From: Nitrospirota bacterium
GTDB lineage: Bacteria > Nitrospirota > UBA9217
Length of the DNA stretch: 64,000 nt
Direction of reading: 5' to 3'
NCBI GenBank assembly: GCA_963790205.1
Contig: CAWBNQ010000003.1
Location: 800,001 to 864,000 of the forward strand
Of the stretch, positions 7,036 to 28,643 are shown in pieces. Every line of letters begins with the position of its first letter. The first letter of the stretch is position 1. The notes under the pieces were generated by a model. The model saw only the letters and a program-made list of their open reading frames with translations. It ran no database searches and was not told the origin of the DNA. A program made the position numbers and the translations under genes.

Positions 7036-7231
7036 CCTTTATTTCGAAAACCTGCTCACACTTAAATTATAGCGCACTTACCGCATCTCGCCTTGTGCCT
7101 CTGCACTCCTTAGTATTACAGATATAAAAGGTATTATTTATCTCAGTGGAGTTGAAGGTCTCCTGGAGAAGTTGTTTCCTACGTTGCTTTCCGCTTGCCC
7201 CTTTTCCCGAAATCCGGTATCTTTGTATCAT

Positions 7232-7951: not shown

Positions 7952-7959
7952 GCAAATCC

Positions 7960-8139: not shown

Positions 8140-8173
8140 CTATCGGGGGCAGATTGATCAAGTCTTAATGCCG

Positions 8174-8437
8174 TTATTTTTTGATTCTGGACTCAAGCAG
8201 CGATACGCGTTTGGCCAGAGCGTCAAATTCATCGTAATCGACTTTTTTCTTCAGAGCACCCTTGAGGAATTGAACATCAGTCTTTATTATCTGGATATCT
8301 TCCATCATGGAGCCGAACTGCTCGCCGATGATTTGGATTTTTGAGTCGAGATCCTCTTTGAAGATGCCGACTATGTGCTGAAAATCGTTTCTTTGTTCGG
8401 TAAGTATTTCTTTCAATTTGCCTTCGGTGATGTCCAT
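8174..8437 (-). CDS. hypothetical coiled-coil protein
   Basis: 87-aa ORF with aggaga RBS and heptad pattern. Confidence 0.7.
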   Translation of the reverse strand: MDITEGKLKEILTEQRNDFQHIVGIFKEDLDSKIQIIGEQFGSMMEDIQIIKTDVQFLKGALKKKVDYDEFDALAKRVSLLESRIKK

Positions 8438-8627
8438 CGTGGTTTAGTCTCCTGTTCTTAACACCGGATGGGGTAAATCAATTTTAGGCATTTAAACTTG
8501 TTCTGTCAAGCCTAGAATAATTATTTTCCATCGAACCGGAGCATGTAAGAAAACTATAGGATCGAGTAGAAAAAAGAAAAGAGGTCATCGATGAGACGAC
8601 CCCTTTTCTAAGTTCATTACTGTTGGC

Positions 8628-10448: not shown

Positions 10449-10695
10449 GATTATTTTCCCTTAACTATAGGTAGATTGCCACGACGAGCTCGCCCTGCAC
10501 CCGCGTTTCCACTCGTAAACGCCGGGCGCAGGCTAAGTACACGAAGAGATTCTTGGTGACAGGGTATTCTCGTGGGTAAAAAAGCACTTTCCAAAGAGGA
10601 GCATAATACAGTGCAAGGCCCAGTTTGTCAATGGAATAAATAGAGGATCATCTTTGATACGAGGGGCTTACAAAACTTCGGTTCAGGATGTTCAT

Positions 10696-10900
10696 GATCC
10701 TTTTCTTTTTCTGCACCGCCGCTCACAGCTCCGCGCAGACATGCCAGGATATCTTCTGTTTTACGTGCCAGTACGGCAGCCCATGAGCGCTTACGCTGCG
10801 CACGCGCATGCATGATCTGTGGTTCACCGGGCTCTCTACCGGGCATGTAAAACGCGTCCCTGTTCACGGGATGCAGGGGCTTCGGGAAAAGCAAAGACGA
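10696..10900. repeat. dispersed ~210 bp element, copy 2
   Basis: Same orientation as and high identity to 2595..2800. Confidence 0.9.
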
Positions 10901-10944
10901 AAAAACCTCTGCCTTCCCGTGCGCCGGACGGGACCGCGAAGCGG

Positions 10945-12321: not shown

Positions 12322-12407
12322 GAGACCGCCTTTCAGAGGTGAGCGAACTTTTTCAATTCTATCATGTTTGCGGCAAGAGTCAATGCGGGGCCGGGAGGAC
12401 GGCGCTC

Positions 12408-13361
12408 TCACAAAAATTGCAACGTGATCACCCAGCCCCTGAGGTCCTTGTCGAACAACGGTGATATTGATATGTTCTGCAGGCCGTTGCCGGCGTCTTT
12501 TTCCTTGTGATACTTGGCGACGCCCATCCCGGCGAGGGTGCCCACGGTAATGCCGGCGATCACATCGGAGAGGAAATGCTCGTTGGCCTGGATCCTCGAC
12601 GCCCCGATAAAAGCCGTGGTCAGATAGAGCGGGACCGCGATCCTGAGGTCCCAGTCGTACATCTCTGAAATGGAAGCGGCCATCGTGGCGGTTATCGAGG
12701 CATGGCCGGAAGGGAAGGAATTGAGGTTTCCTCCGTTCGGGCGTTTCCTCCGCGCCGTCAACTTCAGGCCCTCCGTGGCGAGCCCGTCGATAACATAAGC
12801 TTCCAGCGAAACAACGCCGGTGTCGGCCAGTTTTTTATTGTTTATCAGTTCTCCCGCGCCCAGGAGCGCAAAACCCACGCCGACTTCCGGATAGCCGTTG
12901 CCGATCTTGTCCCCGGTATTCTCGACGTGCTCCAGGGGTTTTCTGTCCTGGAAGTATTTCTTGACCCTCTGGTCCACCGTGAGAGCCAGCCCGGTCAGCC
13001 CCGCTCCGATCAGCGCGAGCGGAACATTATCCTTGGAAAATATTCTTTCCGCTCCGCCCACGACATCGGGGACGAACTCTTTGACGTAGGCGCCGAAAGA
13101 CGGGACCGTCGCCCTTCCGGCGTCAGGCTGTTCGGTCGATGCAGTCTGCTCCCGTTCCGCTGTTTTGAACGGGTCAGCAAGGGTATACGCAACGGTCAAG
13201 ACAGGAGCGCTGGATCGTTCATCCCGGTCCATGGACGGCCGGCCGACGGGTGCATCGAGTCCGGGATCGCCGGTAAATCCATACACGGTCCCGGACGAGA
13301 GGATCACCAGACCAGTAAGAAGTACGACCAGGAAGCGGTATGATTGACGGGTAGTCTGCAT
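12408..13361 (-). CDS. PAP2 family phosphatase
   Basis: K...RKRPNG, SFPSGHAS, SRIQANEHFLSDV motifs. Confidence 0.9.
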   Translation of the reverse strand: MQTTRQSYRFLVVLLTGLVILSSGTVYGFTGDPGLDAPVGRPSMDRDERSSAPVLTVAYTLADPFKTAEREQTASTEQPDAGRATVPSFGAYVKEFVPDVVGGAERIFSKDNVPLALIGAGLTGLALTVDQRVKKYFQDRKPLEHVENTGDKIGNGYPEVGVGFALLGAGELINNKKLADTGVVSLEAYVIDGLATEGLKLTARRKRPNGGNLNSFPSGHASITATMAASISEMYDWDLRIAVPLYLTTAFIGASRIQANEHFLSDVIAGITVGTLAGMGVAKYHKEKDAGNGLQNISISPLFDKDLRGWVITLQFL

Positions 13362-13567
13362 ACGACAGGCTCTAACGCGCGGTGACGGGTCACCGGCATC
13401 GGATCGCTTCGATCGAGGATGCTCTTGTGGTAAAAGTATATCATATTCTTCGAGATGCAGGATAATTTGCGGATTGACAGGGAACGGGGAAAAAGCTATA
13501 AACATCGAAAGAGGCACATCACCGGACGCGGATCTTTCTGAAAAAATCGGGTTCCCGTCCGCCGGCA

Positions 13568-14767
13568 TTGAGGATTCTTTTGCACGACCACATCGTTAAA
13601 TACACGAACAAACTGCTTCGCGACCGGACCGCCGTGCCGGAGAGCATCCGGTTCTACGTGCTCGACGACCGGGTGGTCACGAACCGCGAGGATGAATGGC
13701 TGCCGGTTTTCGCTGCAGTTTTTAAAGGCCTGGACGTCACGGCCCTGCTCTTTGCGAAGACCACGCTTCCCTTTGCCGACCTGCTGGTGGAGCGTGCTGA
13801 TCCCGGGTCGGACCGGCTCGTTCCGAAGGACAGCGAAACGAGGGTCTTCCTCCATGACATCCCGTTCATACGGGAGTCTGAGCGGTCTGGAAAACCGAAA
13901 ACAGCGCTTGCCGAAATGATCATCCGGTGTTTGAAAGAGCGGAAGGCGGTCATCATCCAGGGGCTCGGCGTGGTCGCTTCGGGCGGAGTGACGGTCGAAC
14001 AAGCGTTCATCGGTTTTTCCTCCATCTTTCATACTACCTTCGTAAAATATCTCCTGGACCTTCTGACAGAGGGCTTCAGGTTCCCGCGGGAGCGGAACGT
14101 CGTCGAGGCGTATCAACGATCGAACCCCGGGCCGCGGGACCTGGGCGACCTCGTGTTTACCCCGGGCCCGATAGCGGACCGGCAGACGATCATGAGGGAA
14201 ATCTGCCGCGTCGGACGTTATACCGTCGAGAAGGGGTACGTGGATTCGTTTTTCGGCAACATCAGCTATTTCGACGGGAAAACGATCTTCATCAGCCAGA
14301 CCACGTCGTCGCTGGACGAGCTTGAGGGCTTCATCGACCCCGTGCCGCTCGACGGGTCGTCGACTGCGGGCCTATCGGCGTCGTCCGAGCTGCCCGCGCA
14401 CCGCGGGATCTATGTTTCCTCGGATTATCATGCCGTTTTACACGGTCATCCGAGATTCAGCGTCATCATGTCCATGCACTGCGAAGAAGAGAACTGCGGG
14501 ATAGAGGACTGCAACCGTTTCTGCGACCGTGACCGCTCGGCTTGCGGCGTGCCGATCGTTGCCGGCGAGACCGGCGCGGGCGGACTCGCAAGATCCGTCC
14601 CCCGTGCGATCAGGGATACGGGCGTTTGCATCGTCTACGGGCACGGCATATTCGCGGCCGGGAAGACCGATTTTCACGATGCCTTCATGAAGATGGCGGA
14701 CGTGGAAAACCGCTGCAGGGAAGAGTATTTCAGACTGCTTGAAGAACGTCCAGAGTCCGACGTTTGA
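13568..14767 (+). CDS. class II aldolase/adducin family protein (two-domain)
   Basis: GNIS, SSELPAH, LHGHP, GHG motifs in the C-terminal half. Confidence 0.8.
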   Translation: MRILLHDHIVKYTNKLLRDRTAVPESIRFYVLDDRVVTNREDEWLPVFAAVFKGLDVTALLFAKTTLPFADLLVERADPGSDRLVPKDSETRVFLHDIPFIRESERSGKPKTALAEMIIRCLKERKAVIIQGLGVVASGGVTVEQAFIGFSSIFHTTFVKYLLDLLTEGFRFPRERNVVEAYQRSNPGPRDLGDLVFTPGPIADRQTIMREICRVGRYTVEKGYVDSFFGNISYFDGKTIFISQTTSSLDELEGFIDPVPLDGSSTAGLSASSELPAHRGIYVSSDYHAVLHGHPRFSVIMSMHCEEENCGIEDCNRFCDRDRSACGVPIVAGETGAGGLARSVPRAIRDTGVCIVYGHGIFAAGKTDFHDAFMKMADVENRCREEYFRLLEERPESDV

Positions 14768-14848
14768 AGTTCAAAGTGACAGGCGGGTTACCGTCGTTGT
14801 GTTTTCTGCGTTTCACTCCAAACTCCGGACTCTGAACTGTTTTTTTAT

Positions 14849-15073
14849 TCATGCCACGCTTCTCAATTTCTCGCGGGCGATCCCGAAGTCAAAGGTGTAC
14901 ATTTTGAAGTCCCCCTCAGGGAAGGCCTTTTTGAGGCGCTCGATGAACTCCTGATACACGACGTTCTCATACTGCTGGATGTCGTATTCCCTCGTTTTTT
15001 CATTCGCTCCCTGGAGTTCCATGTCCAGGTAGAAATCCATTTCCGGCGATATCCGAAGCCACATACAGATCAC
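14849..15073 (-). CDS. small hypothetical protein
   Basis: 74-aa ORF with aaggagg RBS and GC-rich codon usage. Confidence 0.6.
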   Translation of the reverse strand: MICMWLRISPEMDFYLDMELQGANEKTREYDIQQYENVVYQEFIERLKKAFPEGDFKMYTFDFGIAREKLRSVA

Positions 15074-15189
15074 CTCCTTCGAACAGAATGCCGACAGGTC
15101 AAAAAAAGCGCGATGCCTCCTTCGCTCTTAGTTCTATTATACCTCACGTCCGCCTGTTCCTGGCTGCGACGTTCGCGAACCGCCATGCA

Positions 15190-16644
15190 TTACGGCTTGA
15201 TCGTGATATAAATAGTTCCCCCTTCGCGGTAAACGAGCAGCAGCGCACTGTCTTTCTCGCCGATCTTCGAGACCAGTCGGTCATAATCGCTGAGATTCTT
15301 GATGTCATGCCGGTTCACTTCGATGATCACGTCGCCGGGCTGGAGAATCCCCTGAGCCGGGCTGTCTGCGCCGATATCGGTGATGACCACTCCGTTCATG
15401 TTTTCCGGGACGCCGATCTGGTCCCGCAGCGAGGCCGTCAGTTCCTGCACCGTAATCCCTTTGAGCACGTTGTTGTACTCGACCTTTTTGATTGCCTGTC
15501 GCTCCTTGAATTCTGCCAGGGTCGCGGTGACGGACCGCTCTTTGCCTTCCCTGAGGATCTTCAGTTCCACCGCTTTCCCCGGCGCCGCGGCGGACACCAT
15601 GTTCCTGAGGCCTGTCGAGTCCTCGACCGGTTTCCCGTCCAGCGATATGATGACGTCGCCCCGCTTCAAACCGGCCTTTTCCGCGGGACTGTCTTTTACC
15701 ACGTCCGCTACGAGGGCGCCCGTTTGCTGCTTGATGCCGAGCGACTTGGCGATATCGGGCGTCAGGTCCTGTATGCTCACGCCGAGCCAGCCGCGGATGA
15801 CCTTGCCGTGCTTGATGATGCTGTCCATTACGGATTTCGCCATGTCCGAGGGAATGGCGAACCCGATCCCCATATAGCCGCCGGACGTCGAAAAGATCGC
15901 TGTGTTGATGCCGACCACCTCGCCGTTCGTGTTCACGAGCGCGCCGCCGGAGTTCCCGGGGTTGATCGCCGCGTCGGTCTGGATGAAATCCTCAAAGTCC
16001 GCGATGCCCACGTTCGACCTGCCGACAGCGCTCACGATCCCCAGGGTGACGGTTGAGTTCAGTCCGAAGGGCGTGCCTACGGCAAGCACGATATCTCCCG
16101 TTTTCAGTTTGGAGGAATCCCCCAGTTTTGCGGCCGGCAGGTCCCTGGCATTTATCTTGATCACCGCAAGGTCGGTCCGGGGATCGGTCCCCACGATCTT
16201 GCCCTTGAACTCGCGCTTGTCTGAAAGGACCACTTTGATTTCTTCGGCGCCTTTGACCACATGGTTGTTCGTCAGGATGTAACCGTTTTCGGAAACGATC
16301 ACTCCGGAGCCGAGCGCCGCGGATTTGTATTTCCGTTTTTGATGACCGAACTGGTCGCCGAAAAAGTGCCGGAAGAAGGGATCATTGAACAGGTTGCCTT
16401 CGGGATTATCCTCTGTCGTAACAATGCTCGTTGTCGAGACGTTCACGACGGAAGGCCGGACGACTTCGGCCACTTCGGCTAAGGCATCGCTGAACCTCCC
16501 GAGGAACTTTATCGTATCGGGCGATACGCTCTTCTCTCTGGCAAAGGCCGCCGTATCAAACGCGGTGGTTCCTGAACCGATGATGACCATAGTGATAAGC
16601 AATTGAAACAACGTCGATGTTCTCTTCGTGATGGATCTTTTCAT
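15190..16644 (-). CDS. DegP/DegQ (HtrA) serine protease with two PDZ domains
   Basis: LGSGVIV, LTNNHVV, QTDAAINPGNSGG motifs; signal peptide. Confidence 0.96.
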   Translation of the reverse strand: MKRSITKRTSTLFQLLITMVIIGSGTTAFDTAAFAREKSVSPDTIKFLGRFSDALAEVAEVVRPSVVNVSTTSIVTTEDNPEGNLFNDPFFRHFFGDQFGHQKRKYKSAALGSGVIVSENGYILTNNHVVKGAEEIKVVLSDKREFKGKIVGTDPRTDLAVIKINARDLPAAKLGDSSKLKTGDIVLAVGTPFGLNSTVTLGIVSAVGRSNVGIADFEDFIQTDAAINPGNSGGALVNTNGEVVGINTAIFSTSGGYMGIGFAIPSDMAKSVMDSIIKHGKVIRGWLGVSIQDLTPDIAKSLGIKQQTGALVADVVKDSPAEKAGLKRGDVIISLDGKPVEDSTGLRNMVSAAAPGKAVELKILREGKERSVTATLAEFKERQAIKKVEYNNVLKGITVQELTASLRDQIGVPENMNGVVITDIGADSPAQGILQPGDVIIEVNRHDIKNLSDYDRLVSKIGEKDSALLLVYREGGTIYITIKP

Positions 16645-16794
16645 GTACGTCTCCTTATTATAAAAAATGAGATATGCGTCATTGCCGGTACTAACAAAGT
16701 AGTAGTAAAATATAACGCTGCGGAAAAGACGCCGTTCAGCTTCATTGACAATTTACAATTCATAGTATAGCAGCGATTTGAAATCCGGAGACGA

Positions 16795-19700
16795 TTAAAC
16801 AGGGGAACACCTCGCTAAGGTCATGCTGTCGAGAAACAGAAGGTAGCCTTCCACATTCTGCAGGGCAAAGATATCTTTTACGGCTTCGCAATAGATCTCG
16901 ATCTGAGGCCGGTAGTGGTCCTGCCACGATTTGAGGGCGTCATCGTTTTCTATGAGAATGGCCTTATAGTCTATCACCTATCCTCTGTTTCCTGTGATCA
17001 CAACGCGGTCGATTTTTCCGCTCACGAGCGCGTGTCCCTTCCTGGAGAGGAAGGGAAGCTCCGAGTATGCATCAGGCCGGCGCTCGAATATCCATCGGAA
17101 CTCCTCTTTGTTCAGTACGGCGTTCAGGACCGAGGCCGCATCATCGACGAAGGGCTGGCGTGCCTCGTCTCCCAGCGCCAGGATGTCCGGATATTCCATG
17201 ATGATGCTGTTGAGATCATATGCACCGGCCTTGGTGAACTCTTCGAGACAGCGGTGAAGCACGCTTCCGCGCGTGAGCGGCGATACGGCGCGGGTCCCGG
17301 ACCGGAGAAAGAGCTTTTCGATCGATTCTTCTTTCTCCTGGTGGATATAATCGGTCGCTGTTTTCCATGCCGGCGTCTCCGACCGCGGGACCGGAGAAAG
17401 GTTGTCGATGACGATCTTCCTGTCACTATCGGCTGCAGCGGATATTATTTGCCGGTCATTCCGGGCAACGCGAAGGACCTCGCTTGTGGCCCGTATGGAT
17501 ACGCCTGGTGGATAAGCGTAGGTGGTTAGTCCGGCTTCCGCTTCCAGCGGCTTTTCAAAAAGGGGCATCAAGGCGGCTTCGTGAAGATAGCTGAGCCAGG
17601 TATTTTGTTTTATCGGCGTTCTGCCGTCATTGAGCGCGCCGATCATGAACAGATGGTCCCGGGCCCGTGTCATCGCGACATAGAGCAGCCGCTGGTGCTC
17701 GCGCAAAAGCTCGTCGTGCTCCCGCGCCCACAGCTCGTCATAGACCGGGCTTCCCGCGTCCTTGACCGCCATTTGGACGCGGTCGTTCACATCCTCGATG
17801 ATGGCAAGCGGACCGGATGAGAGGGACCTGGGCTGCTGGTTCATGCCGGGCAGGAACACGATGGGATATTCGAGGCCTTTTGCCTTGTGCACGGTCATGA
17901 TGCTGACCGAGCCCTCGAACCCCGGCAGGTTCATGTCCGCCGTGGCCTCCCGCTGCTCCGTCTGACTGATGTTCCTCACCCACTCGACAAAGTCCTGGAG
18001 CGTGGTGTAGCCCCTGCGATCGAACTCGCGCGCCGTGTCGAGGAGTTTGTCGATGTTGAAAATGGCCTGCGGATTTTTCCTGCCGAAGCGGACATAGGCG
18101 CCGGTCTCGTTGACGATCCTGTGCAAAAGATCCGCCAGCGGGACGAGGCCGGCAAGGTCCATCCAATCGCGCAAAAGTTTCCAGTCCTCGGGTCTGCGCT
18201 GCTTCAGGGAATCAACGATATTCGCGCCGCCCTGCAGAAGATCGAAGATGTCTCTGTCCGTAAGCCCGAAGAGCGGGGACTTGAGCGCTGCGGCAAGAGC
18301 GAGCTTGTCGTCCCGGTTCCAGAGGAAGAAGAGCACGTTCATGAGGGCCTGCACCTCGTCCTCCTCGTAAAAGCCGATGCCGCCGATCACGCGATAGGGA
18401 ATGTTCTCCGCCTGGAGCGCGGCTTCGTACTCTTTGAGCTTCGTGCGCGACTGAATGAGGATTGCGCAGTCGCCGTATCCGGCTTCGCGTTCTTTCCATC
18501 CTCCATTGTTCGTTCCGGCATTCCCAGCGCGGGAATCCGGCGGCTTTTCATAAACAGCAGCTCCGCTTGCTATCAGAGTTTTTATCTCCCGCGCCAGCAC
18601 CTCTGCTTCTGTGGGGCCTGAAGGCCCTTCCCCTGACGACGGCGTGAGTTCGATGAGCCGCACGCTTCCTTTGTGATCCTTGCGTTCAACATTGGAAGGT
18701 TTATATGCTTCTCCCCAGAGTGTGGCGAAGACACGGTTCACGGTCTCGATGATCTCGGGCGTTGAACGGAAGTTCTTGTCAAGAGTAAGGATCTCGCGCG
18801 ATTCGGCCGGGAGGTTCTTCACCATCTTCTGTTTGACGTTCTCGATCAGGCGATAGTTCGCCTCGCGAAAGCGGTAGATGGATTGTTTCTCGTCGCCGAC
18901 GACAAAGAGGGTAGGGGCCATGCGCTTGTCAGCTCCCTGGCCGGCGAAGATCTCCTCGGTCAGCTTGTTCAGGATGGCCCACTGGATGTCGCTCGTGTCC
19001 TGGAACTCGTCAACGAGGAAGTGGAGGATCTTGCGGTCGAGCCAGTAGAGGATGTCCGGCGATTCCATTCCCTGGAGCAGGCGGTAGGCGTAGATCTCGA
19101 GGTCGTCGAAGTCGAGGAGTCCTTCCCGGAGCTTCGAGTTTTGATATTTCTTTTCGGCGCGCTGGAACAAACGAAGCAGGCTCAGGGCCTCTTGTCCCGC
19201 GCGCATGCGGGCGTGGAGAGCACGGAACTGGCCGAGCCTCTCCTGGATATCGAAAAAAGTTCTTTCGTAGTCGATGCGGTCTTTTCCAGTAAAGGCTTTT
19301 TTGGTGATGGAGGGGTTCTTGCGGGGATTTCCTTCGTTCGTAAAATAGATCGAGACCAGAGGCTCCGATGCTCTGAAGGCAGGATCTACGTCCTTTGCTT
19401 CTGAAAGCATCAGGTGCTCCTTGCCCATGCTGTCTTTATAATGATCGCCTTCGGAGCGAAGGATACGTTCCATCCGTTGCAGCAATGCCCGCCAATCAAC
19501 GCTCGTGACGAACGCCTTGAGTTCCGATTCAGCATGATCAACACCCATCCCCGTCCGAACGGCACGGAGCAACCCCTCCGGACCGCCGGTGTCGATCTCC
19601 ATGCGCTTGAGCCTGCTTCTGATGGAGAGCAGAAATCCGATCGTCTCAATGAGGGCATCAGTCGTGAAATCCCTGAGCGGAGACATGAGCTCCCGGTCGC

Positions 19701-20097
19701 GGTCGGATTCTTCAAGCGCGTCTTCGATGGCCTTTTGTATCTTATACACCTGGTCTCTGGCATCGAGCACGCCGAAGTCCGGCGGAAGCCCGGCTTCGAG
19801 CGGGTAGCGCTTCAAGAGGTTCATGCAGAAGGAGTGGATCGTCGAGATGCGGAGGTCCTGCCTGCCGCGGATGATCTTCTTGAGCATGTCCTCGGGCAGG
19901 TCGCGCATCACGCGCTCTTTGATCTCCGCCGCGGCCTTGTCCGTGAAGGTGATGGCCACGGCCTGGTCGATGGTGAGCCCGCGATCGTCGAGCACGTCCA
20001 GAAGCGCCAGGTAGCGCTCCTTGAGCGCGCGCGTTTTGCCGGAGCCGGCGGAGGCCGAGAGGTGGATGGATTTGGATGTATTTGAGGCGTTATCCAT
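16795..20097 (-). CDS. addA: AddA-type UvrD helicase-nuclease (in-frame TAG at 16980..16978)
   Basis: ASAGSGKT, DEFQDT, VGDEKQSIYRFR, TVHKAKGLEY, LYVAMTRA; C-terminal IDR...(TAG)VIDYK nuclease motif continues in frame. Confidence 0.9.
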
Positions 20098-20132
20098 AGC
20101 TTTTACCGTCGATCAAACAGTATCAAAAATAC

Positions 20133-20166
20133 CTTGACGAATTGTAATGCAATGCATTGCAATTAC
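20133..20166 (+). promoter_or_regulatory. promoter/operator of the toxin-antitoxin pair
   Basis: ttgacg -35-like hexamer followed by near-perfect palindrome tgtaatgcaatgcattgcaattaca. Confidence 0.55.
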
Positions 20167-20195
20167 ATGCATGAACGTCCATTGAGGAGGCATCT

Positions 20196-20579
20196 ATGCA
20201 ATCGCAACTGACCGTGAGACTGCCGGAAGACCTTGACCGCGAGGTCTCCAGCGCAGCCAAAAGGCTTCGCCTCAAGCGCTCCGACATCGTGCGGCCGGCG
20301 CTGGAACAGTATCTGCGCGAGCCCCATGTTCAGGAGGAGCAGGCCCCCTACGGCAAAGTGAAACATCTCGTCGGCTCGGTCAAGAGCGGTATTCCCGATC
20401 CGGGCGCTTCTCACCGGGAGCACCTCGTGAAGCGGATCAGACGCAATGGATGGCATCCTGCTCGACACCGGGGCCTTTGTCGCGCTCCTGGACCGAAGCG
20501 AGAAGAACCATGCAAGGTGCGTAGCATTCTTCAGCTCCTTCCCTGGCAGAGTATTCACCACCGAACCCGTGCTTACTGA
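20196..20579 (+). CDS. CopG/RHH antitoxin (expected stop near 20450 apparently lost)
   Basis: QLTVRLPEDL...RSDIVR RHH motif; upstream of and overlapping a PIN gene. Confidence 0.8.
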   Translation: MQSQLTVRLPEDLDREVSSAAKRLRLKRSDIVRPALEQYLREPHVQEEQAPYGKVKHLVGSVKSGIPDPGASHREHLVKRIRRNGWHPARHRGLCRAPGPKREEPCKVRSILQLLPWQSIHHRTRAY

Positions 20580-20859
20580 AGCCCTCTGTCTTCTCGGTCC
20601 GTCAATCAAGGCGCAACGCGCCTGTCTGGAGTTCATCCTCAAGGGCGGGGCCACTCTTGTGCCGCAATCAACAGCAAGCCTTGAACGCGCCGCTTCGCTC
20701 ATGACGAAGTATCATGACATCCCCATGGATTTCGCCGACGCGACGCTTGTCGCTCTCGCCGAAGAAACGGGTATCAATGAAGTTTTCACCCTCGACAAAC
20801 GGGGATTTCAATCTTACCGCATCCAAGGAAAGAAACCCTTTACATTACGGCCCCTATAA
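20446..20859 (+). CDS. PIN-domain (VapC-like) toxin
   Basis: ILLDTGAFVAL, TTEPVLTE, MDFADA, FTLD..F motifs. Confidence 0.9.
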   Translation: MDGILLDTGAFVALLDRSEKNHARCVAFFSSFPGRVFTTEPVLTEALCLLGPSIKAQRACLEFILKGGATLVPQSTASLERAASLMTKYHDIPMDFADATLVALAEETGINEVFTLDKRGFQSYRIQGKKPFTLRPL

Positions 20860-20860
20860 A

Positions 20861-22060
20861 TTAAGAATGACCTAAACTCTTATATATCTCTTCGAAATTA
20901 ATACCTCCAATGGTTACGCCCTCATACGCTTCGGGAAGAGATTTTAAAACGCTCTCCAGATGACTTGAGGTTATACCGTGGGCAACGGAAAGTGATGCCT
21001 CCATATAAGCTGCAAGATGGTCACATGCCTTGATAACTTCTCCATCGACTGGAGAGAACCTGTCGTCGTTATATTGAGAATTCAATGAATCAGCAGGCAC
21101 AGCCTTTACCGTGCCATTTTCCAGAATCTTGCTGCTGAACTCGTCCTCGATGAAGTATTTTATCTCTTGGTGCCAGCTTTCAGGCAGGAGCGGAAGGATG
21201 CGTTCTTCTACCTGTTTCTTTTCGATTTCCTTGATCAAGTCTTCGAGTCCTGCAACAGACCTTTTAACCGGAGATACGATGTCCCGCGTCAAGACCTCGG
21301 GTAGATCATGGAAGAGACCAGCGAAGAAATTGTTTCTTACGCGGACATCACAGGCCCCAGCTTCCTCGGCACATATATAAGCAAGCACGGCAACAACCAG
21401 CATGTGCCCCATTACTGACGTGGCAGGAACCCTCGGCGATTTGGTCCACCGTTGCTGGAACCTGAGTTGGCCTACGAGGTCCGTGAAATTTCCGACTTTT
21501 TTTACGAGGCTGATCTTCTGCACCCCGATCATATCTGAATACAACTCGAGATCTTCCTCGATTTGCTGTTTCGTTTCGGTTATTTCATAAAAATGCTTGT
21601 TCAGTGGATAAACGATCCCGAATTCCCAATTCGTCGCTAGGTAGTGGGCCGCCTGGAGTATCCTCCGCTCATCGGGGAAGAGTCGCTCATTAAGTAAGTA
21701 AGCTTCAAAGCGGTCCATGAAGCCGCTGCTGATATCCCTGAGCGTATCGTTAAGCTGGTCGAGCACCCAACGGTTCAGCTTCTCTCCGCTATCGCGCATC
21801 ATCCGATGAAAGACCGGAGGCTTGATATCCGTGAGAACGGTCCGATGGAAAAACTCAAATAAGGCGCCCTCGATCAATACCTTCCAATCAACCGGAGATC
21901 CACCGCTCGTTTCTTCGAACTTCGCAAGAACATATGCATAAAACATTTTGTGTGCTTGTTTGTCTAATTCAGTAAAACCATGAGGTGGTCGGATATGGTC
22001 GTTCCAGCGTTGGATGTGGGCGGATTCGTAGATTAGTTCAAGGATGGCTTTAGTGATCAT
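20861..22060 (-). CDS. HD-domain protein with two YfbR-like repeats
   Basis: IQRWNDH..ELDKQAH..HR..LTDI; second repeat FQQRW..SVMGH..FHDLPE..TRDI..CDHL. Confidence 0.88.
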   Translation of the reverse strand: MITKAILELIYESAHIQRWNDHIRPPHGFTELDKQAHKMFYAYVLAKFEETSGGSPVDWKVLIEGALFEFFHRTVLTDIKPPVFHRMMRDSGEKLNRWVLDQLNDTLRDISSGFMDRFEAYLLNERLFPDERRILQAAHYLATNWEFGIVYPLNKHFYEITETKQQIEEDLELYSDMIGVQKISLVKKVGNFTDLVGQLRFQQRWTKSPRVPATSVMGHMLVVAVLAYICAEEAGACDVRVRNNFFAGLFHDLPEVLTRDIVSPVKRSVAGLEDLIKEIEKKQVEERILPLLPESWHQEIKYFIEDEFSSKILENGTVKAVPADSLNSQYNDDRFSPVDGEVIKACDHLAAYMEASLSVAHGITSSHLESVLKSLPEAYEGVTIGGINFEEIYKSLGHS

Positions 22061-22149
22061 AAGTGATTACGAACTGGTCGACAATAAACATATGATTGTC
22101 GCGCGTCGAAGGAGCGACATATTGCTACGACAGTGGAGCATTATGTTTA

Positions 22150-22638
22150 TCACCTTTTTCTGTTAAGTGGTGGCATTTCTAAGTGTTCATTAAAATAACG
22201 CTTCAGTAGGTCTCTCTCTGCTTTATCCGGTTGTGGATGAACTACATAATTGATAGCAATTGGTCCGTAGGTCTTAATTATATATTCATATCGTTTCCAA
22301 TTGTAGTCATCATCTCCACCTGCCTCCGTTGACGCATATTTGTAATGTCTATCGAACAAGCTAGTTATTGTTTTTCCAATATAGACAACGTCACTCGTGG
22401 ATTTTAGACGCGGTATCGCCCCCTTAGTGGTGGCCCAAACGTACACTACACCTACTGCACTATGTGCTTCATCGGATAAGAATACATTTTTAAACGCAAT
22501 TCGAAAGCTATCTCGGTTGCTACCTTCCAGTACTCCCGGAAGATTTTTTATTTCCCCATCAAGGTTAGCCATTAATTCATCATGATTCATACGTTTCATT
22601 CCTTTCTGCCTTTCTGGCGAAATAGCATTTATCTCCAT
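22150..22638 (-). CDS. GIY-YIG-like nuclease
   Basis: GVVYVW...VVYIGKT..L..R...AE..LL..Y...H...PPLN pattern. Confidence 0.7.
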   Translation of the reverse strand: MEINAISPERQKGMKRMNHDELMANLDGEIKNLPGVLEGSNRDSFRIAFKNVFLSDEAHSAVGVVYVWATTKGAIPRLKSTSDVVYIGKTITSLFDRHYKYASTEAGGDDDYNWKRYEYIIKTYGPIAINYVVHPQPDKAERDLLKRYFNEHLEMPPLNRKR

Positions 22639-22672
22639 GGTTGAGCGCGCAAATAAGGAATATCATTGTTAA

Positions 22673-23059
22673 TTACTTTCGTTTGACCTTTAGTACAACA
22701 ACTAGAGCCAAAACAGGAATTGGCACATCGCCATCGGTTTCCCAGCTATCGGAGGAGCTTCCGTTGTATGGTTTTAATGTTCTGCCATCCCATTCCCAGC
22801 TATCGGAGGAGCTTCCGTTGTATGGCTTTAATGTTCTGCCATCCCATTCCCAACTATCGGAGGAGCTTCCGTTGTATGGTTTTAATGTTCTGCCATCCCA
22901 TTCCCAACTATCGGAGGAGCTTCCGTTGTATGGTTTTAATGTTCTGCCATCCCATTCCCAACTATCGGAGGAGCTTCCGTTGTATGGCTTTAATGTTCTG
23001 CCATCCCATTCCCAGCTATCGGACGAACTTCCATTGTATGGCTTAATAGTTATGCTCAT
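22673..23059 (-). CDS. tandem-repeat protein (18-aa unit WEWDGRTLKPYNGSSSDS) with hydrophobic/basic C-terminal tail
   Basis: aaaagaggtg RBS; co-oriented with the island genes; repeat variants fall at codon third positions. Confidence 0.75.
   Translation of the reverse strand: MSITIKPYNGSSSDSWEWDGRTLKPYNGSSSDSWEWDGRTLKPYNGSSSDSWEWDGRTLKPYNGSSSDSWEWDGRTLKPYNGSSSDSWEWDGRTLKPYNGSSSDSWETDGDVPIPVLALVVVLKVKRK
22739..23047. repeat. 54-bp tandem repeat, 5 full copies plus a partial one
   Basis: Unit ttccca(g/a)ctatcggaggagcttccgttgtatgg(t/c)tttaatgttctgccatccca; no spacers. Confidence 0.97.
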
Positions 23060-23455
23060 CGAATTTCACCTCTTTTATTAAATGGTGGGTTGATTGCGTA
23101 GAATAATGCTAAACTCGACAACTCAATATAAGCGCAGTCTGGTCCACAATAAATGAACGGCTATTCTTTCTCCTTTTATATTTTACTGTCGCTGGATAAG
23201 AGTGATCACCGACAAAAAATTTGTCGCGTAGAATGTGTCAACTGTCTTTTAAAGGCCCTATCGACTAAGCAGAGCTATGATATGACAGAGTGTATATAGG
23301 AAGGATGTACTTGTCAATAATATTTCTGGTTCACAAATCTAATGAGGGCCAATCATTTTTACTCGGGTTAGCTCGTAAGCGCCAAGTTGTTCTCCAGTCT
23401 GATTTTCTCAACTCCTCGACCACTGTTTCCTTCTTGGAATATCTATATCCTCACA

Positions 23456-23824
23456 TCACTTTAACTTCATCGTGCAGATATACACGCTGAGAACAGAGGC
23501 TTCCTGCGAATTATTGGGAAGCCCACCGGCTGTTTTGGCATCATAGATAAAATCAATTATGCCCTTTGACACTTCATAAGATAGCGAAGCCTCTTTGTAT
23601 CCATCAAGAAGCTCTGTCTTGGATGCACCTCTTTTATAATGGTCGAAAATCTGAGATCCATAAAGAGATGCTACATCCTTGCAGATTGAAGCATTCTGAG
23701 GTGTCATCTGGTTGAGATTTTTCTGTGCCTTCCTCGAAAGTTCCTTCGCATCAAATGCTGAAGAGGATGAACAGCCAGCCATTGTTACAAACATCACGAT
23801 AATCAAAAGCGCAAGCTTATTCAT
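23456..23824 (-). CDS. putative lipoprotein
   Basis: MNKLALLIIVMFVTMAGC lipobox; aggag RBS. Confidence 0.75.
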   Translation of the reverse strand: MNKLALLIIVMFVTMAGCSSSSAFDAKELSRKAQKNLNQMTPQNASICKDVASLYGSQIFDHYKRGASKTELLDGYKEASLSYEVSKGIIDFIYDAKTAGGLPNNSQEASVLSVYICTMKLK

Positions 23825-24044
23825 ACGTGTTTTCTCCTGGCATTATTTTTTGTTACAGATATAGATCAATTATGCTTTACTTGCCCACTACATTTTCTTC
23901 AATGAACTTTAACCGCTCGGCCAAGTTTCTCCACGGCCCTCCACACATTTTCGCCATAAAAGGTGTAAGCATGCACTCTGGTTTATAATAACAATTATTG
24001 CACTTGATGGGTTTGTTTTCACCATTTTGAATTATCATTCAAGT

Positions 24045-24077
24045 AGAATAACACCAGCTACTGACAACAGTATGTCA
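24045..24077 (-). promoter_or_regulatory. putative WYL-regulator site/promoter A
   Basis: Palindrome TGACA-N6-TGTCA (24062..24077); minus strand reads TGTCAG-N10-TATTCT. Confidence 0.65.
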
Positions 24078-24455
24078 TACTCGAATAAGGGTTAAAGCTT
24101 TCTTTATCGTATTTAGCAAATATGCATTTTCTGGTGGCTTTATTATAAAATCAAATGCTCCCGTAAGAAATGCCTTCTTGGCCGTTTCCTTGCTCGCATA
24201 GTTCGCAAGTATGATCACCGGCATTCGCGGCCTGAATTCCCTCAACCTCCGTAGCGTTTCTAGCACTTCGAGCTCTGGCATGGTAGCATCCGTGTCTATG
24301 ACCGCTAGGGCGATTTCTTCTCTGGAAATTATTTCGAGTCCTTCCGCTGGGGATGTCGCCGAAATAGCCTGATAGCTCTCAGAGCAAAGAAGTCTGACAA
24401 GAGGCGCGAGAACTTCCTTGTTAAGGGTGATTATTAAAATTTTTTCATTATTCAC
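24075..24455 (-). CDS. atypical single-domain response regulator (receiver)
   Basis: Receiver fold (LAVID, P..PVIIL, GAFDFIIKP) lacking the N-terminal acidic pair; start uncertain (GTG 24455 or ATG 24488). Confidence 0.75.
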   Translation of the reverse strand: MNNEKILIITLNKEVLAPLVRLLCSESYQAISATSPAEGLEIISREEIALAVIDTDATMPELEVLETLRRLREFRPRMPVIILANYASKETAKKAFLTGAFDFIIKPPENAYLLNTIKKALTLIRV

Positions 24456-24462
24456 GAGATAT

Positions 24463-24496
24463 AAAATACCTTCTATTCCTGACAGCATTATGTCAG
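24463..24496 (-). promoter_or_regulatory. putative WYL-regulator site/promoter B
   Basis: Palindrome CTGACA-N6-TGTCAG (24479..24496); minus strand reads TGTCAG-N10-TATTTT. Confidence 0.65.
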
Positions 24497-24532
24497 TGGT
24501 TGAAATTTTTTATTTGAGAGAAAAATCAAGCT

Positions 24533-25513
24533 TCAGCGGCCTTTATTTTTTTTCTGATATAAAGCTGCCATTGATTTGAGTTCGCTTGCCACTTCTTTTC
24601 TGAATTCCGGCGGGGCAAGAACCTCACAGTCTGATCCCCAGTGATAAATCCAACGCCGGATCTCATCGGTGCCCTCAAGTGTGACCTTGAATATAATCGA
24701 CCCGTCTTTCTTGGTTTCTATCTTTTGTGATGGATGCCATTTCCGCCTTGTTATCCAGCGAGACATGCCGTGGCTGAACCTCAATTTTATCTCTACGGGG
24801 CTGCCATATCTGATGATATGCCAGCCTGCTTTGAAGTATTCATCCATGGAGAATCCCTGTGGAATGACATAATTTCTATGGGTTGCCGCGACATTTTGAA
24901 TGCAATCAAGAGCAAATTCCCGGATGCATTTCTTCTCGTGGCAGTAGGCAAGAGTGTACCAGACCCCGTTGCTGTAAAAGAGGCCATACGGATTTATCAT
25001 CCTTTGGGTCATCTTCTGGCTTCCCATAGCGTGGTACGTTATATCCAAGCTGACCTTCTCATCAAGGGCTTTTTGCAACGCGTCAAATTGCTTTTGAACA
25101 GCAGAAAAATCGTCGACGGGGTCTATATCAAACCAGTAATTTGAAGAAACGGTTTTCAGCCTTTGTCCTGTTTTATGTCCAGTCCCAAGCGTGATCTTCT
25201 TCATAAGACCGCTGTAAGCATTCGCAATCCCATGTCCCAGTTTGGAGAGCACAGCTTTGCTTGCCAGCATGGCCCTCGCCTCGTCAGTGGACAAATCAAT
25301 TTTTTTGAGCGAATAGCCTTCGGTAAATCGATAAGAGGCGGCGTCCTCATTAAAATAGACGGGGAAATCAAGAGAAAGCGCTCCGAGGTCCCTGTACACG
25401 GTCCTTTCTGCTACGCCGAAACGTTCGGCAAGACCTTTAGCAGTCACTTTCCCTCCTTTATCTATAAGGCTCAGGATTTCAACCATCCTGTTAACTCGTT
25501 TCATATCAGCCAT
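24533..25513 (-). CDS. HTH-WYL-WCX transcriptional regulator (YafY/PafBC/DriD-like)
   Basis: LAERFGVAERTVYRDL HTH; PYGL...GVWYTLAYC...IREF WYL; WHPSQ...WIYHWG..CEVLAP WCX. Confidence 0.93.
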   Translation of the reverse strand: MADMKRVNRMVEILSLIDKGGKVTAKGLAERFGVAERTVYRDLGALSLDFPVYFNEDAASYRFTEGYSLKKIDLSTDEARAMLASKAVLSKLGHGIANAYSGLMKKITLGTGHKTGQRLKTVSSNYWFDIDPVDDFSAVQKQFDALQKALDEKVSLDITYHAMGSQKMTQRMINPYGLFYSNGVWYTLAYCHEKKCIREFALDCIQNVAATHRNYVIPQGFSMDEYFKAGWHIIRYGSPVEIKLRFSHGMSRWITRRKWHPSQKIETKKDGSIIFKVTLEGTDEIRRWIYHWGSDCEVLAPPEFRKEVASELKSMAALYQKKNKGR

Positions 25514-25522
25514 GGATACTCC

Positions 25523-28500
25523 TCATTTTCCCTGTGCATCATCCGTGGAGGCCGCTCCATCACACATCACCTCATTCGGGCAATAACGGCATTTGTTCTC
25601 GTCCTGCGGCGTTGAGGTGAAATTGCCCGCCAGGATGGCCTCGATTGCCTTACGGGCCTTGTCCATGCTCTGATTCAGGATCGTCTCGAATTCATCTGTG
25701 CTTTTGGGGCTTGCGTTGGGCTTGGACGAGGGGTGATCGTTCCGCGCTTCCTTGTTAAAGAGCACAACGTCCCGGGCGCCTGCCCGGGTCTTGCCCGCGA
25801 GATCGTAATACGCGAGGCCTATCGGTTTCTTCAATGCCGGACCCTTGGCGAGCAATGCCCGCTGTGACATGACCGCATAGACGGGGAGTTGAAAAATGTC
25901 CTGGTCAACGTTCATTTTCGGCAAAGGATATTTGCCCGTCTTGTAGTCTACGATGATGAAGTTCCCGTTCTCGTCCACGTCGATTCGGTCTATCCTGGCC
26001 GAGAGTTCGACTTCCTCGCCGTTCGAAAGAAGAAGCGGATAACGCTCGATCTTTTGTTCAAGGTAGGCCGGACGGAATCCTTGTTTCCAGAATTTCTCTT
26101 CCGCATCAAGGAATCGCTCAGCCATGACGGTCAGGAACAGCTCTTTCTCCCGCCGGTTGCGGAAGGTGTCGGCCTCGGGATCGAAGGCTGAGTCAGCGAG
26201 TTTTCGTAAGATCGTCCGCGCCTCATCCCGGGCCGCTCTCGTGACGGGCCTGGTCCAGGAAAGATAGAAGTTCCGGAGGATCGCGTGCACTTTGCTGCCG
26301 CGGGCCATGGGCGAAATGTCTTCGGTCGGCTCTTCGAGCGGTTCGATGCGGAGAACGTATTTTACGTAATAATCGTAGGGGCACTTGAGGTAATCGTCCA
26401 GCTCGGTGACCCGGAATTCCCGTTTCACGAACGGCGTGTTACCCTGAGCGCGTTCTTCAGGCTTATAGTCGAGGGCTGATCTGATCCCGGACACGCCTTC
26501 GATGTTCGAATTCAGGATCTCATCGAGCCCTTTGATGCTCCCCGCAAGACCGATCGCCTTTGCCAGTTCAGGAACGCTGCGACTGTCCTCGATCTTTAAA
26601 CTGAACTGAATACCGGAGGTCTTCCCGATCCCGCGATTCAGCAGGCCCGCCTCCTTGAGCGGGGTCAGCTCCTCCAGAAAGGGCGACGGCACCACGGGCC
26701 TGTCGCCCTCGTTCTCCGGCCAGGTCAGCGTGATAGTATCAGCCGAGAGCAGGAGACGGTAAAAATGATAGGCTGCGTTCAGGCGCGCCCGCTCAAGCGT
26801 GCGCACGCCCATGGCCTCGAGCGTCTGCTCGGGAAGGAAGATGTTCTGCGGCAGGCGTTGGGGAAACTTGCCGTCTGCAAGCCCGCCGAGGTAGATCTCC
26901 TGCCAGGGAGTGCCCAGGCTTTCCTCGAGCCCCAGGATCTGCACGCCCCCTTCGTCCTCGGGCGGCACCTGGAAGCGGGTGTGCATGAAGGTCTTCTTCA
27001 AAAGGAAGAGCCATTCGTGGAACGTATGCGTATAGCCGGCGAAAAGGCTCCCTGCCCGGGCAAGCGACCCCAGCGTTTCGATCAGTTTCCGGTAGGCCTG
27101 GAGATTGACATTGAGGGGGCCGTGAATTGCCGCGACCCTGGCGCCGAGGCCTGACCAGGCAATGAGAACGTCGAGGCGCTTCATCCAGATATTGAGCGGC
27201 GCAGTATCCTGTGAAGAAAAAGGTTCGAGTGCTGCAAAGAGCTCGTTCAATGGTCCGGTCAGTACGTCGGAAGCGCTTTCATCAAGCTTGTGGAGTTTAA
27301 GCGCTGCAAGGAGTTTCTGCCTGCCGCCAATAATGCGCCTGTCCCGCATGAGCCGGTCGAGCGCCGGAGCGATCGTCCGGTTTTCGGCGAACTTCAAAAA
27401 AGGAGAACTAAAGACGCGCAGGAGCGACGGGCCGGAGAAATCTTCCTGGCATGCGCGAAGGAGCGAGACCACGGCAATGGCAACCGCCGAGGTGCTGAGC
27501 TGCCTGCCAAGCGCGCGGTTGTAGGGGATGCCGTAGTCGTTGAATATCTCTTCCACGAGCGGGCCGTATTCGTCGAGCGCGGGAAAGGCAATGAGGATCG
27601 AGTCCGCCAATGTGCCGGTTTTGAGCGATCTCTTCACCTCGCCGGCGATGAGCGTAACCTCTTCACGGGTATTCACGGCTGAGAGCAGATTGATCGTCTT
27701 TGCGAACGATGAAGGTTGGGGAGCTTTGTCCGCTATCTCGGAAAAAGGCCTGTCCGAAAACAGGGCCGAGGCAAGGAACAGCTGCTCGTCATCCGCGTCA
27801 ACTCCCGCCTCCTTCGGAAGGACCCCGATACTGACAAGAGAATCGTGAACAATCCTGAGGGGATGATATTCACCTGCACGTTTAAGCAGGTCTGATGAGG
27901 GAACGTTAACGAGCCATGTGCAGTTTCCGCAGTCCGCCACTTTTTTAAGAATGTCCGCTTCGAGCGGGCCGATGTCCTGAATGCCGTCGATGATGATCGT
28001 GCGATAGTGCGCCAGCCAGACGGGATCGAAGCGGTCGCGAAGGTATGCGCGCATCCCCGCGGGATCGGTAAGGTTGCCCTCTTTTAGAGCGTTTTGATAG
28101 CGGGTATACACGTCAAGGAGCAGCCGGACTTGCGGTTTGTCGAAAGAATCCGAACCTTGTATCTTTACCGAGAGGTCGTCGGGGTTTATGCCGGCGCCCG
28201 AAAGCTGCTCGATCATTGTTGCCACTGCCGAGGTGAGCGACGGCGCGAGCAGGTCGGGACTGAGAGGGAATGAGGAGAAATTGCTCAGGCGTTCTTTCAC
28301 GATGCCTTCGAGAAGGACCAGCCTGCTGTTCTCGTCCATCAGAAGGGGCCCGTTGAGACGGCCATAGAGCAGCTGAAGGAACTGGTGGAGCGTCTGGACC
28401 TCGGGCTGGACCAGCGCGGCGGACCCTCTGCGCTCCGCGAATTCCAGGAACAGCCTGCCGTACATCCGCTTCATGCGCGAAGAGGGCACGAGGATTAGAA

Positions 28501-28612
28501 CGTCGTTATACAGGAAGGGCGCAGCCGGCCGCGAAGACAGAACATCTTCAAGCACGCGCTTTTTTTCTTCCCAGCCGGCGCTTCCATATGGCAGAACGAG
28601 CGCTTTCAACAT
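25523..28612 (-). CDS. addB: AddB-type inactive helicase / PD-(D/E)XK nuclease with Fe-S cysteines
   Basis: CPYDYY, RGSKVH, RIDRID..IIVDYKTG, QLPVY, C-terminal CRYC...C. Confidence 0.88.
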   Translation of the reverse strand: MLKALVLPYGSAGWEEKKRVLEDVLSSRPAAPFLYNDVLILVPSSRMKRMYGRLFLEFAERRGSAALVQPEVQTLHQFLQLLYGRLNGPLLMDENSRLVLLEGIVKERLSNFSSFPLSPDLLAPSLTSAVATMIEQLSGAGINPDDLSVKIQGSDSFDKPQVRLLLDVYTRYQNALKEGNLTDPAGMRAYLRDRFDPVWLAHYRTIIIDGIQDIGPLEADILKKVADCGNCTWLVNVPSSDLLKRAGEYHPLRIVHDSLVSIGVLPKEAGVDADDEQLFLASALFSDRPFSEIADKAPQPSSFAKTINLLSAVNTREEVTLIAGEVKRSLKTGTLADSILIAFPALDEYGPLVEEIFNDYGIPYNRALGRQLSTSAVAIAVVSLLRACQEDFSGPSLLRVFSSPFLKFAENRTIAPALDRLMRDRRIIGGRQKLLAALKLHKLDESASDVLTGPLNELFAALEPFSSQDTAPLNIWMKRLDVLIAWSGLGARVAAIHGPLNVNLQAYRKLIETLGSLARAGSLFAGYTHTFHEWLFLLKKTFMHTRFQVPPEDEGGVQILGLEESLGTPWQEIYLGGLADGKFPQRLPQNIFLPEQTLEAMGVRTLERARLNAAYHFYRLLLSADTITLTWPENEGDRPVVPSPFLEELTPLKEAGLLNRGIGKTSGIQFSLKIEDSRSVPELAKAIGLAGSIKGLDEILNSNIEGVSGIRSALDYKPEERAQGNTPFVKREFRVTELDDYLKCPYDYYVKYVLRIEPLEEPTEDISPMARGSKVHAILRNFYLSWTRPVTRAARDEARTILRKLADSAFDPEADTFRNRREKELFLTVMAERFLDAEEKFWKQGFRPAYLEQKIERYPLLLSNGEEVELSARIDRIDVDENGNFIIVDYKTGKYPLPKMNVDQDIFQLPVYAVMSQRALLAKGPALKKPIGLAYYDLAGKTRAGARDVVLFNKEARNDHPSSKPNASPKSTDEFETILNQSMDKARKAIEAILAGNFTSTPQDENKCRYCPNEVMCDGAASTDDAQGK

Positions 28613-28643
28613 TGCGGCATGATTATGCCACAAGTAAAAATTA

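Follow-up and report, generated by a model that had tools for sequence, protein, structure and literature searches.

In this study, we describe a putative promoter element in a 64,000-nucleotide stretch of the genome of a Nitrospirota bacterium (assembly GCA_963790205.1, contig CAWBNQ010000003.1, positions 800,001 to 864,000; hereafter the window, whose own numbering is used throughout). Two copies of the palindrome TGACA-N6-TGTCA, which we call operators 1 and 2, each stand at an identical distance before a candidate -10 box on the minus strand, close to the gene of a single-chain regulator with a WYL domain. Judged from the sequences compared here, the element has the bipartite form YGACA-N6-TGTCR-N11-TAnnnT, is tied to one clade of WYL proteins and oriented with the WYL gene, and would form promoters lacking a -35 box and having a purine at +1. 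It is a real, conserved, WYL-linked promoter element whose system is neither a member of PafBC nor an orthologue of DriD. The sites are most likely WYL-dependent promoters, and a homodimeric activator of the DriD/SiwR type fits the evidence best; we think it probable that the element works in the way of DriD. New here are an operator of 16 bp, a sensor with Ala and Cys, and cargo that is local and variable; the mechanism class has already been described, and the surprise is therefore moderate.

Conservation of the bipartite element

Both sites named in a preliminary description of this DNA are present exactly, reading TGTCAG-N10-TATTTT (24468-24463) and TGTCAG-N10-TATTCT (24050-24045) on the minus strand. 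Exact copies of TGACA-N6-TGTCA occur nowhere else in the 4.34-Mb genome, and the two are separated by 418 bp; palindromes with other spacers (N3-N10) number 1-6 per genome. If one mismatch is tolerated, 2 matches occur in the window where 1.17 would be expected, and 38 of 100 shuffles also reach 2; TGTCRG-N10-TAnnnT is unenriched genome-wide (28 matches, compared with 22-46 across N6-N14). The palindrome count by itself is thus at chance level; what goes beyond chance is the location beside the sole WYL gene, the identical -10 spacing and the conservation in relatives. Moreover, a position weight matrix (PWM) built from 58 homologous sites, the weakest of which scored 19.2 bits, places only operators 2 (35.6) and 1 (28.3) above that minimum in the whole genome, the next score being 16.6 and the reversed control reaching 15.7. 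The transcription starts predicted earlier, at 24456 and 24038, seem to fit well with a GTG at 24455 and an ATG at 24038, and the proposed -26 register agrees with the position of the downstream half-site, which at -28 to -24 occupies the register of the PafBC -26 element.

We gathered 164 loci of WYL homologues, 96 of which were left after reduction at 90% WYL identity; the 57 whose WYL protein is at least 38% identical, the window included, are referred to as close loci. Exact N6 palindromes occur 44 times in 30 of the 57, and any other spacer from N3 to N10 gives 0-1. The site lies on the WYL strand in 42 of 56 close loci, and in 33 of 39 loci of at least 5 kb. Distances to the -10 box were counted for 40 exact palindromes in 27 loci, a set without the window and without sites close to the end of a contig: TAnnnT follows exactly 11 bp downstream on the WYL strand in 35 of the 40, any other offset on either strand is found in at most 3, and the reverse side alone has none. 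The base at +1 is a purine in 31 of the 40 sites, and all 40 match TTGACA at 17 bp in at most three of six positions, i.e., they are without a -35 box. The upstream TGACA was rejected as a -35 box, with a spacing that would be 22 bp and a T at -40 in none of the 40.

Searching near the homologues for TGTCA-N11-TAnnnT alone returned 71 matches, and the upstream half was perfect in 39 and present with one mismatch in 15 (54/71), which argues that both half-sites matter; the remaining 17 lone downstream halves are close to background (neighbouring spacings give 11-22 matches in total). The base after TGTCA is C in 21, G in 15 and T in 4 sites, so that the PafBC-like sixth G shared by the two window sites is not a family feature. 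A scan of the phylum (401 genomes) gave 83 exact matches to the bipartite pattern, in 46 genomes, versus 28 for the reversed control, and some of these matches are due to chance. In a relative about 90% identical over 23877-25600, none of the 40 differences listed, of 158 in all, falls in operator 2 or its -10 box, and the flanks differ. Sequencing run X1 contributed short near-identical pieces only, which are not independent evidence.

A second, PafBC-like class with TGTCGG-N10 was considered and rejected: of its 8 matches near homologues, several are CGACA-N6-TGTCG palindromes of the clade with Glu or Gln at helix residue 40 (see below), and the rest have no upstream half and are unexplained or background. 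A site in locus L113 falls within the coding sequence of a methyltransferase and probably arose by chance. In four loci (L069, L121, L078 and L118) we observed runs of genes in which every gene has a near-duplicate promoter block of its own in front; the blocks of L069 and L121 remain similar for about 50 bp beyond the upstream edge of the operator, which suggests that promoter cassettes were duplicated.

Table 1. Features of the low-GC (guanine plus cytosine) island and its flanks, in minus-strand order, with positions in the window
Feature	Position	Strand	Remarks
AddB-like subunit	25523..28633	-	Upstream flank of low-GC island; below curated cut-offs
WYL regulator, winged helix-turn-helix (wHTH)-(helical bundle)-WYL-WCX, 326 aa	24533..25513	-	Pfam HTH_11, WYL, WCX
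Operator 1, TGACA-N6-TGTCA	24480..24495	-	Predicted -39..-24; PWM score 28.3
-10 box of promoter 1, TATTTT	24463..24468	-	11 bp past palindrome; predicted start 24456-24455
Single-domain receiver protein	24075..24455	-	Response_reg (Pfam); likely GTG start 24455, predicted +2, leaderless
Operator 2, TGACA-N6-TGTCA	24062..24077	-	PWM score 35.6, top score in genome
-10 box of promoter 2, TATTCT	24045..24050	-	TG at -15/-14; predicted start 24038
Cys-rich open reading frame (ORF), 53 aa	23877..24038	-	ATG at predicted +1, likely leaderless
122-aa protein, lipoprotein-like signal (by inspection)	23456..23824	-	Variable cargo; replaced in ~90% identical relative
Canonical sigma70-type promoter, TTGACA-N17-TACACT	23289..23317	-	Consensus match only, 10/12
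Site 3, CGACA-N7-TGTCG then G-N10-TATCCA	23210..23226	-	Unsupported as working member; decayed copy or chance
128-aa repeat protein	22673..23059	-	5.6 copies of 18-aa (54-bp) repeat; variable cargo
162-aa protein	22150..22638	-	No family match in Pfam, NCBIfam, PADLOC; variable cargo
HD/YfbR-like phosphohydrolase	20861..22060	-	Recurrent distal neighbour of WYL clade
AddA-like helicase-nuclease	16978..20097	-	Downstream flank; below curated cut-offs

A third, weaker site upstream of the repeat protein had been proposed as a further member of the set. The sequence does exist, one base further in than described (it starts at 23210, not 23209), and its membership is unsupported. The N7 spacer occurs once among the close loci versus 68 occurrences of N6, the box TATCCA has no T at -7, and the PWM score is at most 6.4 bits even with one base skipped; on these three grounds site 3 was ruled out as a family member. 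It is possible that it represents a decayed copy or a homopolymer slip. The canonical TTGACA-N17-TACACT promoter already lies upstream of both site 3 and the repeat protein gene.

The WYL regulator and its predicted action

The gene of the regulator begins 9 bp past the addB stop codon, and a PWM scan of its upstream region gave no operator. The genome, which is 98% complete, contains a single PF13280 match, the 326-aa module described here, and with this one WYL gene no PafC-like partner gene was found in it. The nearest named homologues, 62-65% identical, come from records labelled Nitrospirota, and those with 40-46% identity mostly from Nitrospinota and Deltaproteobacteria records. A literature search, with most subscription papers, figures and supplements outside its coverage, turned up no publication dealing with the operator or with the clade.

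The WCX domain, the single WYL gene and the palindromic site together suggest a homodimer, and the WYL protein would be the binder of the palindromes. In the mechanism that we propose, the adjacent wHTH-WYL-WCX protein would occupy both half-sites as a homodimer over the -35 position, with R37 and R41 of helix 3 presumably reading the two guanines of each GTC. The bound dimer would then activate, rather than repress, RNA polymerase with the housekeeping sigma factor at promoters without a -35 box, and it would probably contact the polymerase through the beta subunit and the C-terminal domain of the alpha subunit (alphaCTD), not by displacing sigma domain 4. The probable trigger would be single-stranded DNA (ssDNA) arising from DNA damage and bound by the WYL domain.

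Among 52 homologues, R37 is found in 45 and R41 in all, and these arginines carry the same numbers as the guanine-reading arginines of DriD. The DriD structure offers a further point of comparison, as its Glu40 contacts the outer C (C1) of the operator (PMC10853764). We compared residue 40 with the operator in 47 loci having a full N-terminus, 36 of which have sites. In the 31 loci with Tyr, Phe or His at this position, the window among them, the last base is A in 50 of 51 sites; in the 4 loci with Glu or Gln, the last base is G in 8 of 9 sites and the first is C in all 9. On these counts residue 40 appears to track the outer base of the operator, as the DriD structure predicts. A separate, distant Asp40 lineage (L188 and L197) has mixed C/T sites, and the covariation rests on one clade plus such distant Asp40 and Gln40 cases.

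In this same Asp40 lineage (L188, 14692-14935, and L197), sites with a -10 box on both sides, possibly bidirectional, are accompanied by a conserved second site. Distant WYL proteins in five further loci (L022, L029, L023, L030 and L031) adjoin palindromes with an N5 spacer, in which TAnnnT still stands 11 bp past the downstream half; these sites suggest that the register may be retained while the spacer varies.

With regard to structure, the AlphaFold model has a mean predicted local distance difference test (pLDDT) value of 74 and a predicted template modelling score (pTM) of 0.46, with three helices at residues 76-121. The five best Foldseek matches are DriD chains, followed by PafBC. By sequence, PafBC is the best match in the PDB, and CapW and BrxR are among both the sequence and the fold matches.

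Known WYL systems and competing explanations

The sources on the known systems were available to us in part, and the comparisons below extend to those parts. DriD of Caulobacter crescentus (PMC9186387, PMC10853764) resembles the present protein as a single-chain wHTH-bundle-WYL-WCX regulator with a palindromic operator that covers the -35 position and keeps a fixed distance to the -10 box; its promoters are also without a -35 box, the downstream half-site lies 11 bp before the -10 hexamer, the helix arginines are numbers 37 and 41, and the sensor residues Y168, R178, Y192 and R204 are kept here as Y160, R171, Y186 and R198. The DriD homodimer has a palindrome that overlaps the -35 position and lies at a single distance from the -10 box; sigma 4 stays on the opposite face, and contacts are made to beta and alphaCTD (PMC13004042). 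The 11-bp distance is our own reading, counted from the oligonucleotides in the methods text, with which the didA cryo-EM oligonucleotide agrees; the figures were not seen, and the figure aligning DriD promoters could bear on this register. In the optimised -35 oligonucleotide of that study, TTGACA stands 17 bp before CAATCT (PMC13004042), from which the 11 bp for the downstream half-site of DriD follow. The two systems differ in that Tyr or Phe (Tyr40 in the window) replaces Glu40, and Ala201 and Cys204 replace DriD R207 and R210; moreover, identity is only about 17-18%, and the regulon here is predicted to be local and variable, without a recA site in this genome.

In mycobacterial PafBC, the HTH of PafB alone reads DNA, at -23 to -28 in a non-palindromic half-site, and the HTH of PafC binds sigma domain 4, which is the authors' reason for the heterodimer (PMC8635444). 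The WYL family, GTC at -27 to -25 before TAnnnT and the missing -35 box are shared with our element (PMC8635444); in contrast, the heterodimer, the non-palindromic site, the binding of PafC to sigma 4, the need for R211/R214 and the control of about 150 genes belong to PafBC and not to the system described here (PMC8635444, PMC11804915). SiwR of Mycobacterium smegmatis is likewise a homodimeric WYL activator of adjacent genes, with a palindrome between -35 and -10 and a requirement for the -26 region (PMC10693628), but its palindrome is an imperfect one of 19 bp with a GGA triplet, its targets are fixed and dinB-like, and it needs an R204/R207 pair that the present clade appears to lack (PMC10693628). 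DdaA of the Moraxellaceae is also a homodimeric WYL activator with a palindromic site, an Ala in place of the first sensor arginine and two conserved sensor tyrosines (PMC12392091, PMC13010146); unlike here, its site, CGWCA-N5-TGWCG, precedes the start site by about 50 bp, and its genome-wide repair and defence regulon includes recA (PMC12392091, PMC13010146).

The preliminary description had assigned these promoters to sigma adaptation in the manner of PafBC. That assignment is opposed by the single WYL gene, by the upstream half accompanying most downstream halves (54/71), by the unconserved sixth G and by the identical register of DriD; because DriD promoters share it, geometry of PafBC type around -26 does not single out PafBC. 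A homodimer might still act by sigma adaptation with one HTH on the -26 half-site and the other on sigma domain 4, the upstream half serving to pre-load the dimer. In support of this, the position of the downstream GTC agrees with the PafBC register (consensus tGTCgg-N10-tA-N3-T), conservation is higher in the downstream half than in the upstream one, PafBC is the best PDB sequence match, and the authors of the SiwR study, whose homodimer needs the -26 region, deem a related mechanism plausible (PMC10693628). However, the genome yielded no PafC-like partner gene, both subunits would bear the DNA-reading R37/R41 helix where the helix of PafC is acidic and does not read DNA (PMC8635444), lone half-sites are near background, and the same register works without sigma displacement in DriD (PMC13004042), all of which makes this version quite improbable. 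Repression also has to be weighed, since a WYL dimer might cover the -35 region of extended -10 promoters and be released by a nucleic-acid signal, as in CapW and BrxR. A TG at -15/-14 is seen in 17 of the 40 exact sites and in window site 2, the WYL gene itself has a site upstream in 3 of 37 close loci, some loci hold defence-like genes, and CapW and BrxR appear among the sequence and fold matches. Against this, repression needs neither a single exact 11-bp offset nor a single orientation, 23 of the 40 sites and window site 1 have neither TG nor -35 box, and CapW and BrxR ranked below DriD and PafBC in both searches; we consider repression improbable.

It is also conceivable that another regulator binds the palindrome and that the WYL gene merely travels in the same islands, and the few sites in genomes without a detected WYL homologue and the receiver protein of the island would suit this. 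We find it very improbable in view of the receiver's lack of a DNA-binding domain, the recurrence of other window-island genes in no more than a few close loci, the way the operator bases track WYL helix residue 40, and the GTC core, which is what the arginines of the WYL HTH read in PafB and DriD (PMC8635444, PMC10853764). To chance, or to functionless remnants of a local duplication, we give almost no credence: two palindromes per genome are indeed a chance-level count, but spacer, offset, strand and the +1 base are conserved over at least 27 diverged loci.

The activation by a DriD-like homodimer that we favour has several observations weighing against it. The extended -10 TG in 17 of 40 sites means that some promoters might fire unaided and be repressed, and half-sites drift unevenly, with one mismatch in the upstream half of 15 sites versus the downstream half of 6. 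The operator, TGAC-N8-GTCA (16 bp), has a spacer one base longer than that of DriD, CGAC-N7-GTCG (15 bp) (PMC10853764). Some exact sites occur in genomes (e.g., G015 and G170) without a WYL match to the query used, 11 of the 47 loci with a full N-terminus have no site, and the patterns used to retrieve related loci included the FALDC motif, which biases the set toward loci bearing it. On a quick tree, from which loci below 37% identity or without the N-terminus were left out, the Glu/Gln40 covariation is one clade event (6 rows, Shimodaira-Hasegawa-like approximate likelihood ratio test (SH-aLRT) support 90), and distant Gln40 proteins (L022, L029) adjoin T/A-type N5 sites, breaking the residue-40 rule. 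The three-helix region of the model has low pLDDT (44-59), and Foldseek TM-scores to DriD are only about 0.35. Lastly, the equivalents of PafB R211/R214 are Ala201 in 52 of 52 homologues and Cys204 in 50 of 52.

This last point bears on the trigger. Y160, R171 and Y186, the aligned equivalents of DriD Y168, R178 and Y192, are invariant in the 52 homologues, and R198, equivalent to R204, is present in 51. In PafB, R211/R214 are required for ssDNA binding, which is abolished when the pair is lost (PMC11804915). Among 150 wider relatives, retrieved by a search using no word index, the pair reads AR in 53, RR in 22 and AC in 5, and was unparsed in 40; on this reading, loss of the first arginine is common, also occurring in DdaA, and loss of both marks the present clade. 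Taken alone, ssDNA as the trigger is a view toward which we lean only somewhat, because the two sensor arginines are missing. A less likely view is that the clade consists of WYL activators with a changed trigger, sensing another nucleic-acid product or a small ligand, and driving portable one-gene modules, each with an operator/-10 copy of its own. If this were true, newly acquired genes would join a stress regulon upon arrival; together with PafBC, DriD and SiwR, a -26 docking register would be common to WYL activators that contact polymerase differently; and a simple code would hold, in which helix residue 40 sets the outer base pair of the operator.

The present analysis would extend DriD-style activation without a -35 box to a WYL clade in records labelled Nitrospirota, Nitrospinota and Deltaproteobacteria, and it provides a precise operator and predicted start sites and points out a small, easily missed Cys-rich gene. 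It offers direct tests of three questions: whether the -26 register is common to WYL activators regardless of their contact with polymerase, whether residue 40 dictates T/A versus C/G at the edge of the operator, and whether a WYL domain naturally without the arginine pair senses ssDNA.

Predicted regulon, cargo genes and island

A genome-wide repair regulon is likewise unsupported. The PWM scan found no site upstream of recA, lexA, addA or addB, and a genome-wide PafBC-like regulon is rejected for this genome, in which LexA and RecA are present. The regulon is instead predicted to be local: its members would be the receiver gene, the 53-aa ORF and perhaps also the lipoprotein gene behind it, which is possibly read through from promoter 2. 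The receiver protein has, by inspection, no usual acidic pair after strand 1, and it is without a DNA-binding domain; the TGA stop of its gene also supplies the opening three bases of operator 2. When the protein is numbered from the GTG start, the alignments to several NCBIfam receiver profiles begin at residue 1-7. The alternative ATG at 24488 was rejected as the start, as it lies within operator 1 and upstream of the predicted start site, and GTG 24455 fits better. The 53-aa protein gave no Pfam match and, in the Atlas, only unnamed clusters with recognition below threshold. A 92% identical protein (P0069) was found, as well as homologues in the WYL loci L040, L042 and L188; the homologue of L188 has its ATG at +1 behind a site, and so does that of L040, where the spacer of the site is N5 and the reading frame is broken.

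The genes that follow the sites differ from one relative to another. An AAA-ATPase cluster makes up the largest group, with 17 of 69 ORFs, some of them truncated, and others are SMC-like, DnaB_C, UDG-like, peptidase M50 and beta-CASP nuclease genes and many unknowns. AddA-like genes stand behind a site in L253 and L244, HD and AddB-like genes behind sites in L187, and the WYL gene itself behind one in 3 of 37 close loci. The HD gene lies downstream of the WYL gene in L129, L035, L092 and L086, and directly behind a site in L187. In the ~90% identical relative, similarity ends at the stop codon of the 53-aa ORF, and 1211 other bases take the place of the 1410 bp that lie between the lipoprotein region and the HD gene in the window. 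These patterns fit a local regulon whose cargo can be exchanged and which is loosely tied to the processing of DNA ends. The cargo genes of the window gave no defence-system match in PADLOC; the IetA-like and LmuB-like matches that PADLOC gave for cargo genes of relatives reflect general ATPase or SMC similarity, and we do not call them defence systems.

As for the remaining cargo, the 122-aa protein has no Pfam or NCBIfam match, and the 128-aa repeat protein has no homologue in the fetched loci or elsewhere in the genome. Its repeat, at 22739-23041, consists of 54-bp units that are 96% identical and encode 18 Trp/Ser-rich amino acids, and the gene has a good ribosome-binding site. The 162-aa protein (22150-22638) shows, by inspection, a pattern that resembles GIY-YIG nucleases.

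The guanine plus cytosine fraction is 0.41-0.48 inside the island versus 0.58 at the addB flank. Along the minus strand, addB is followed by the WYL regulator, operator 1, the receiver, operator 2, the 53-aa ORF, the lipoprotein-like gene, the repeat protein, the 162-aa ORF and the HD hydrolase, and about 5.4 kb of island thereby separate addB from addA (16978-28633). A pair of ribbon-helix-helix (RHH) antitoxin and PIN toxin genes lies on the other strand (20196-20859, plus), between the HD gene and addA; as listed, the RHH frame runs 127 aa into the PIN gene, and its stop or the assembly may be off. In L124 and L064, AddA-like genes are likewise found close to the WYL gene. Locus L187 has the order HD, addB, addA, and both HD and addB are preceded by sites. 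Beside this HD-addB-addA block, an integrase-bounded island (5738-19183, genome G091) with Wadjet-like and AGS_C/Pycsar-effector genes carries a separate WYL protein of 23% identity.

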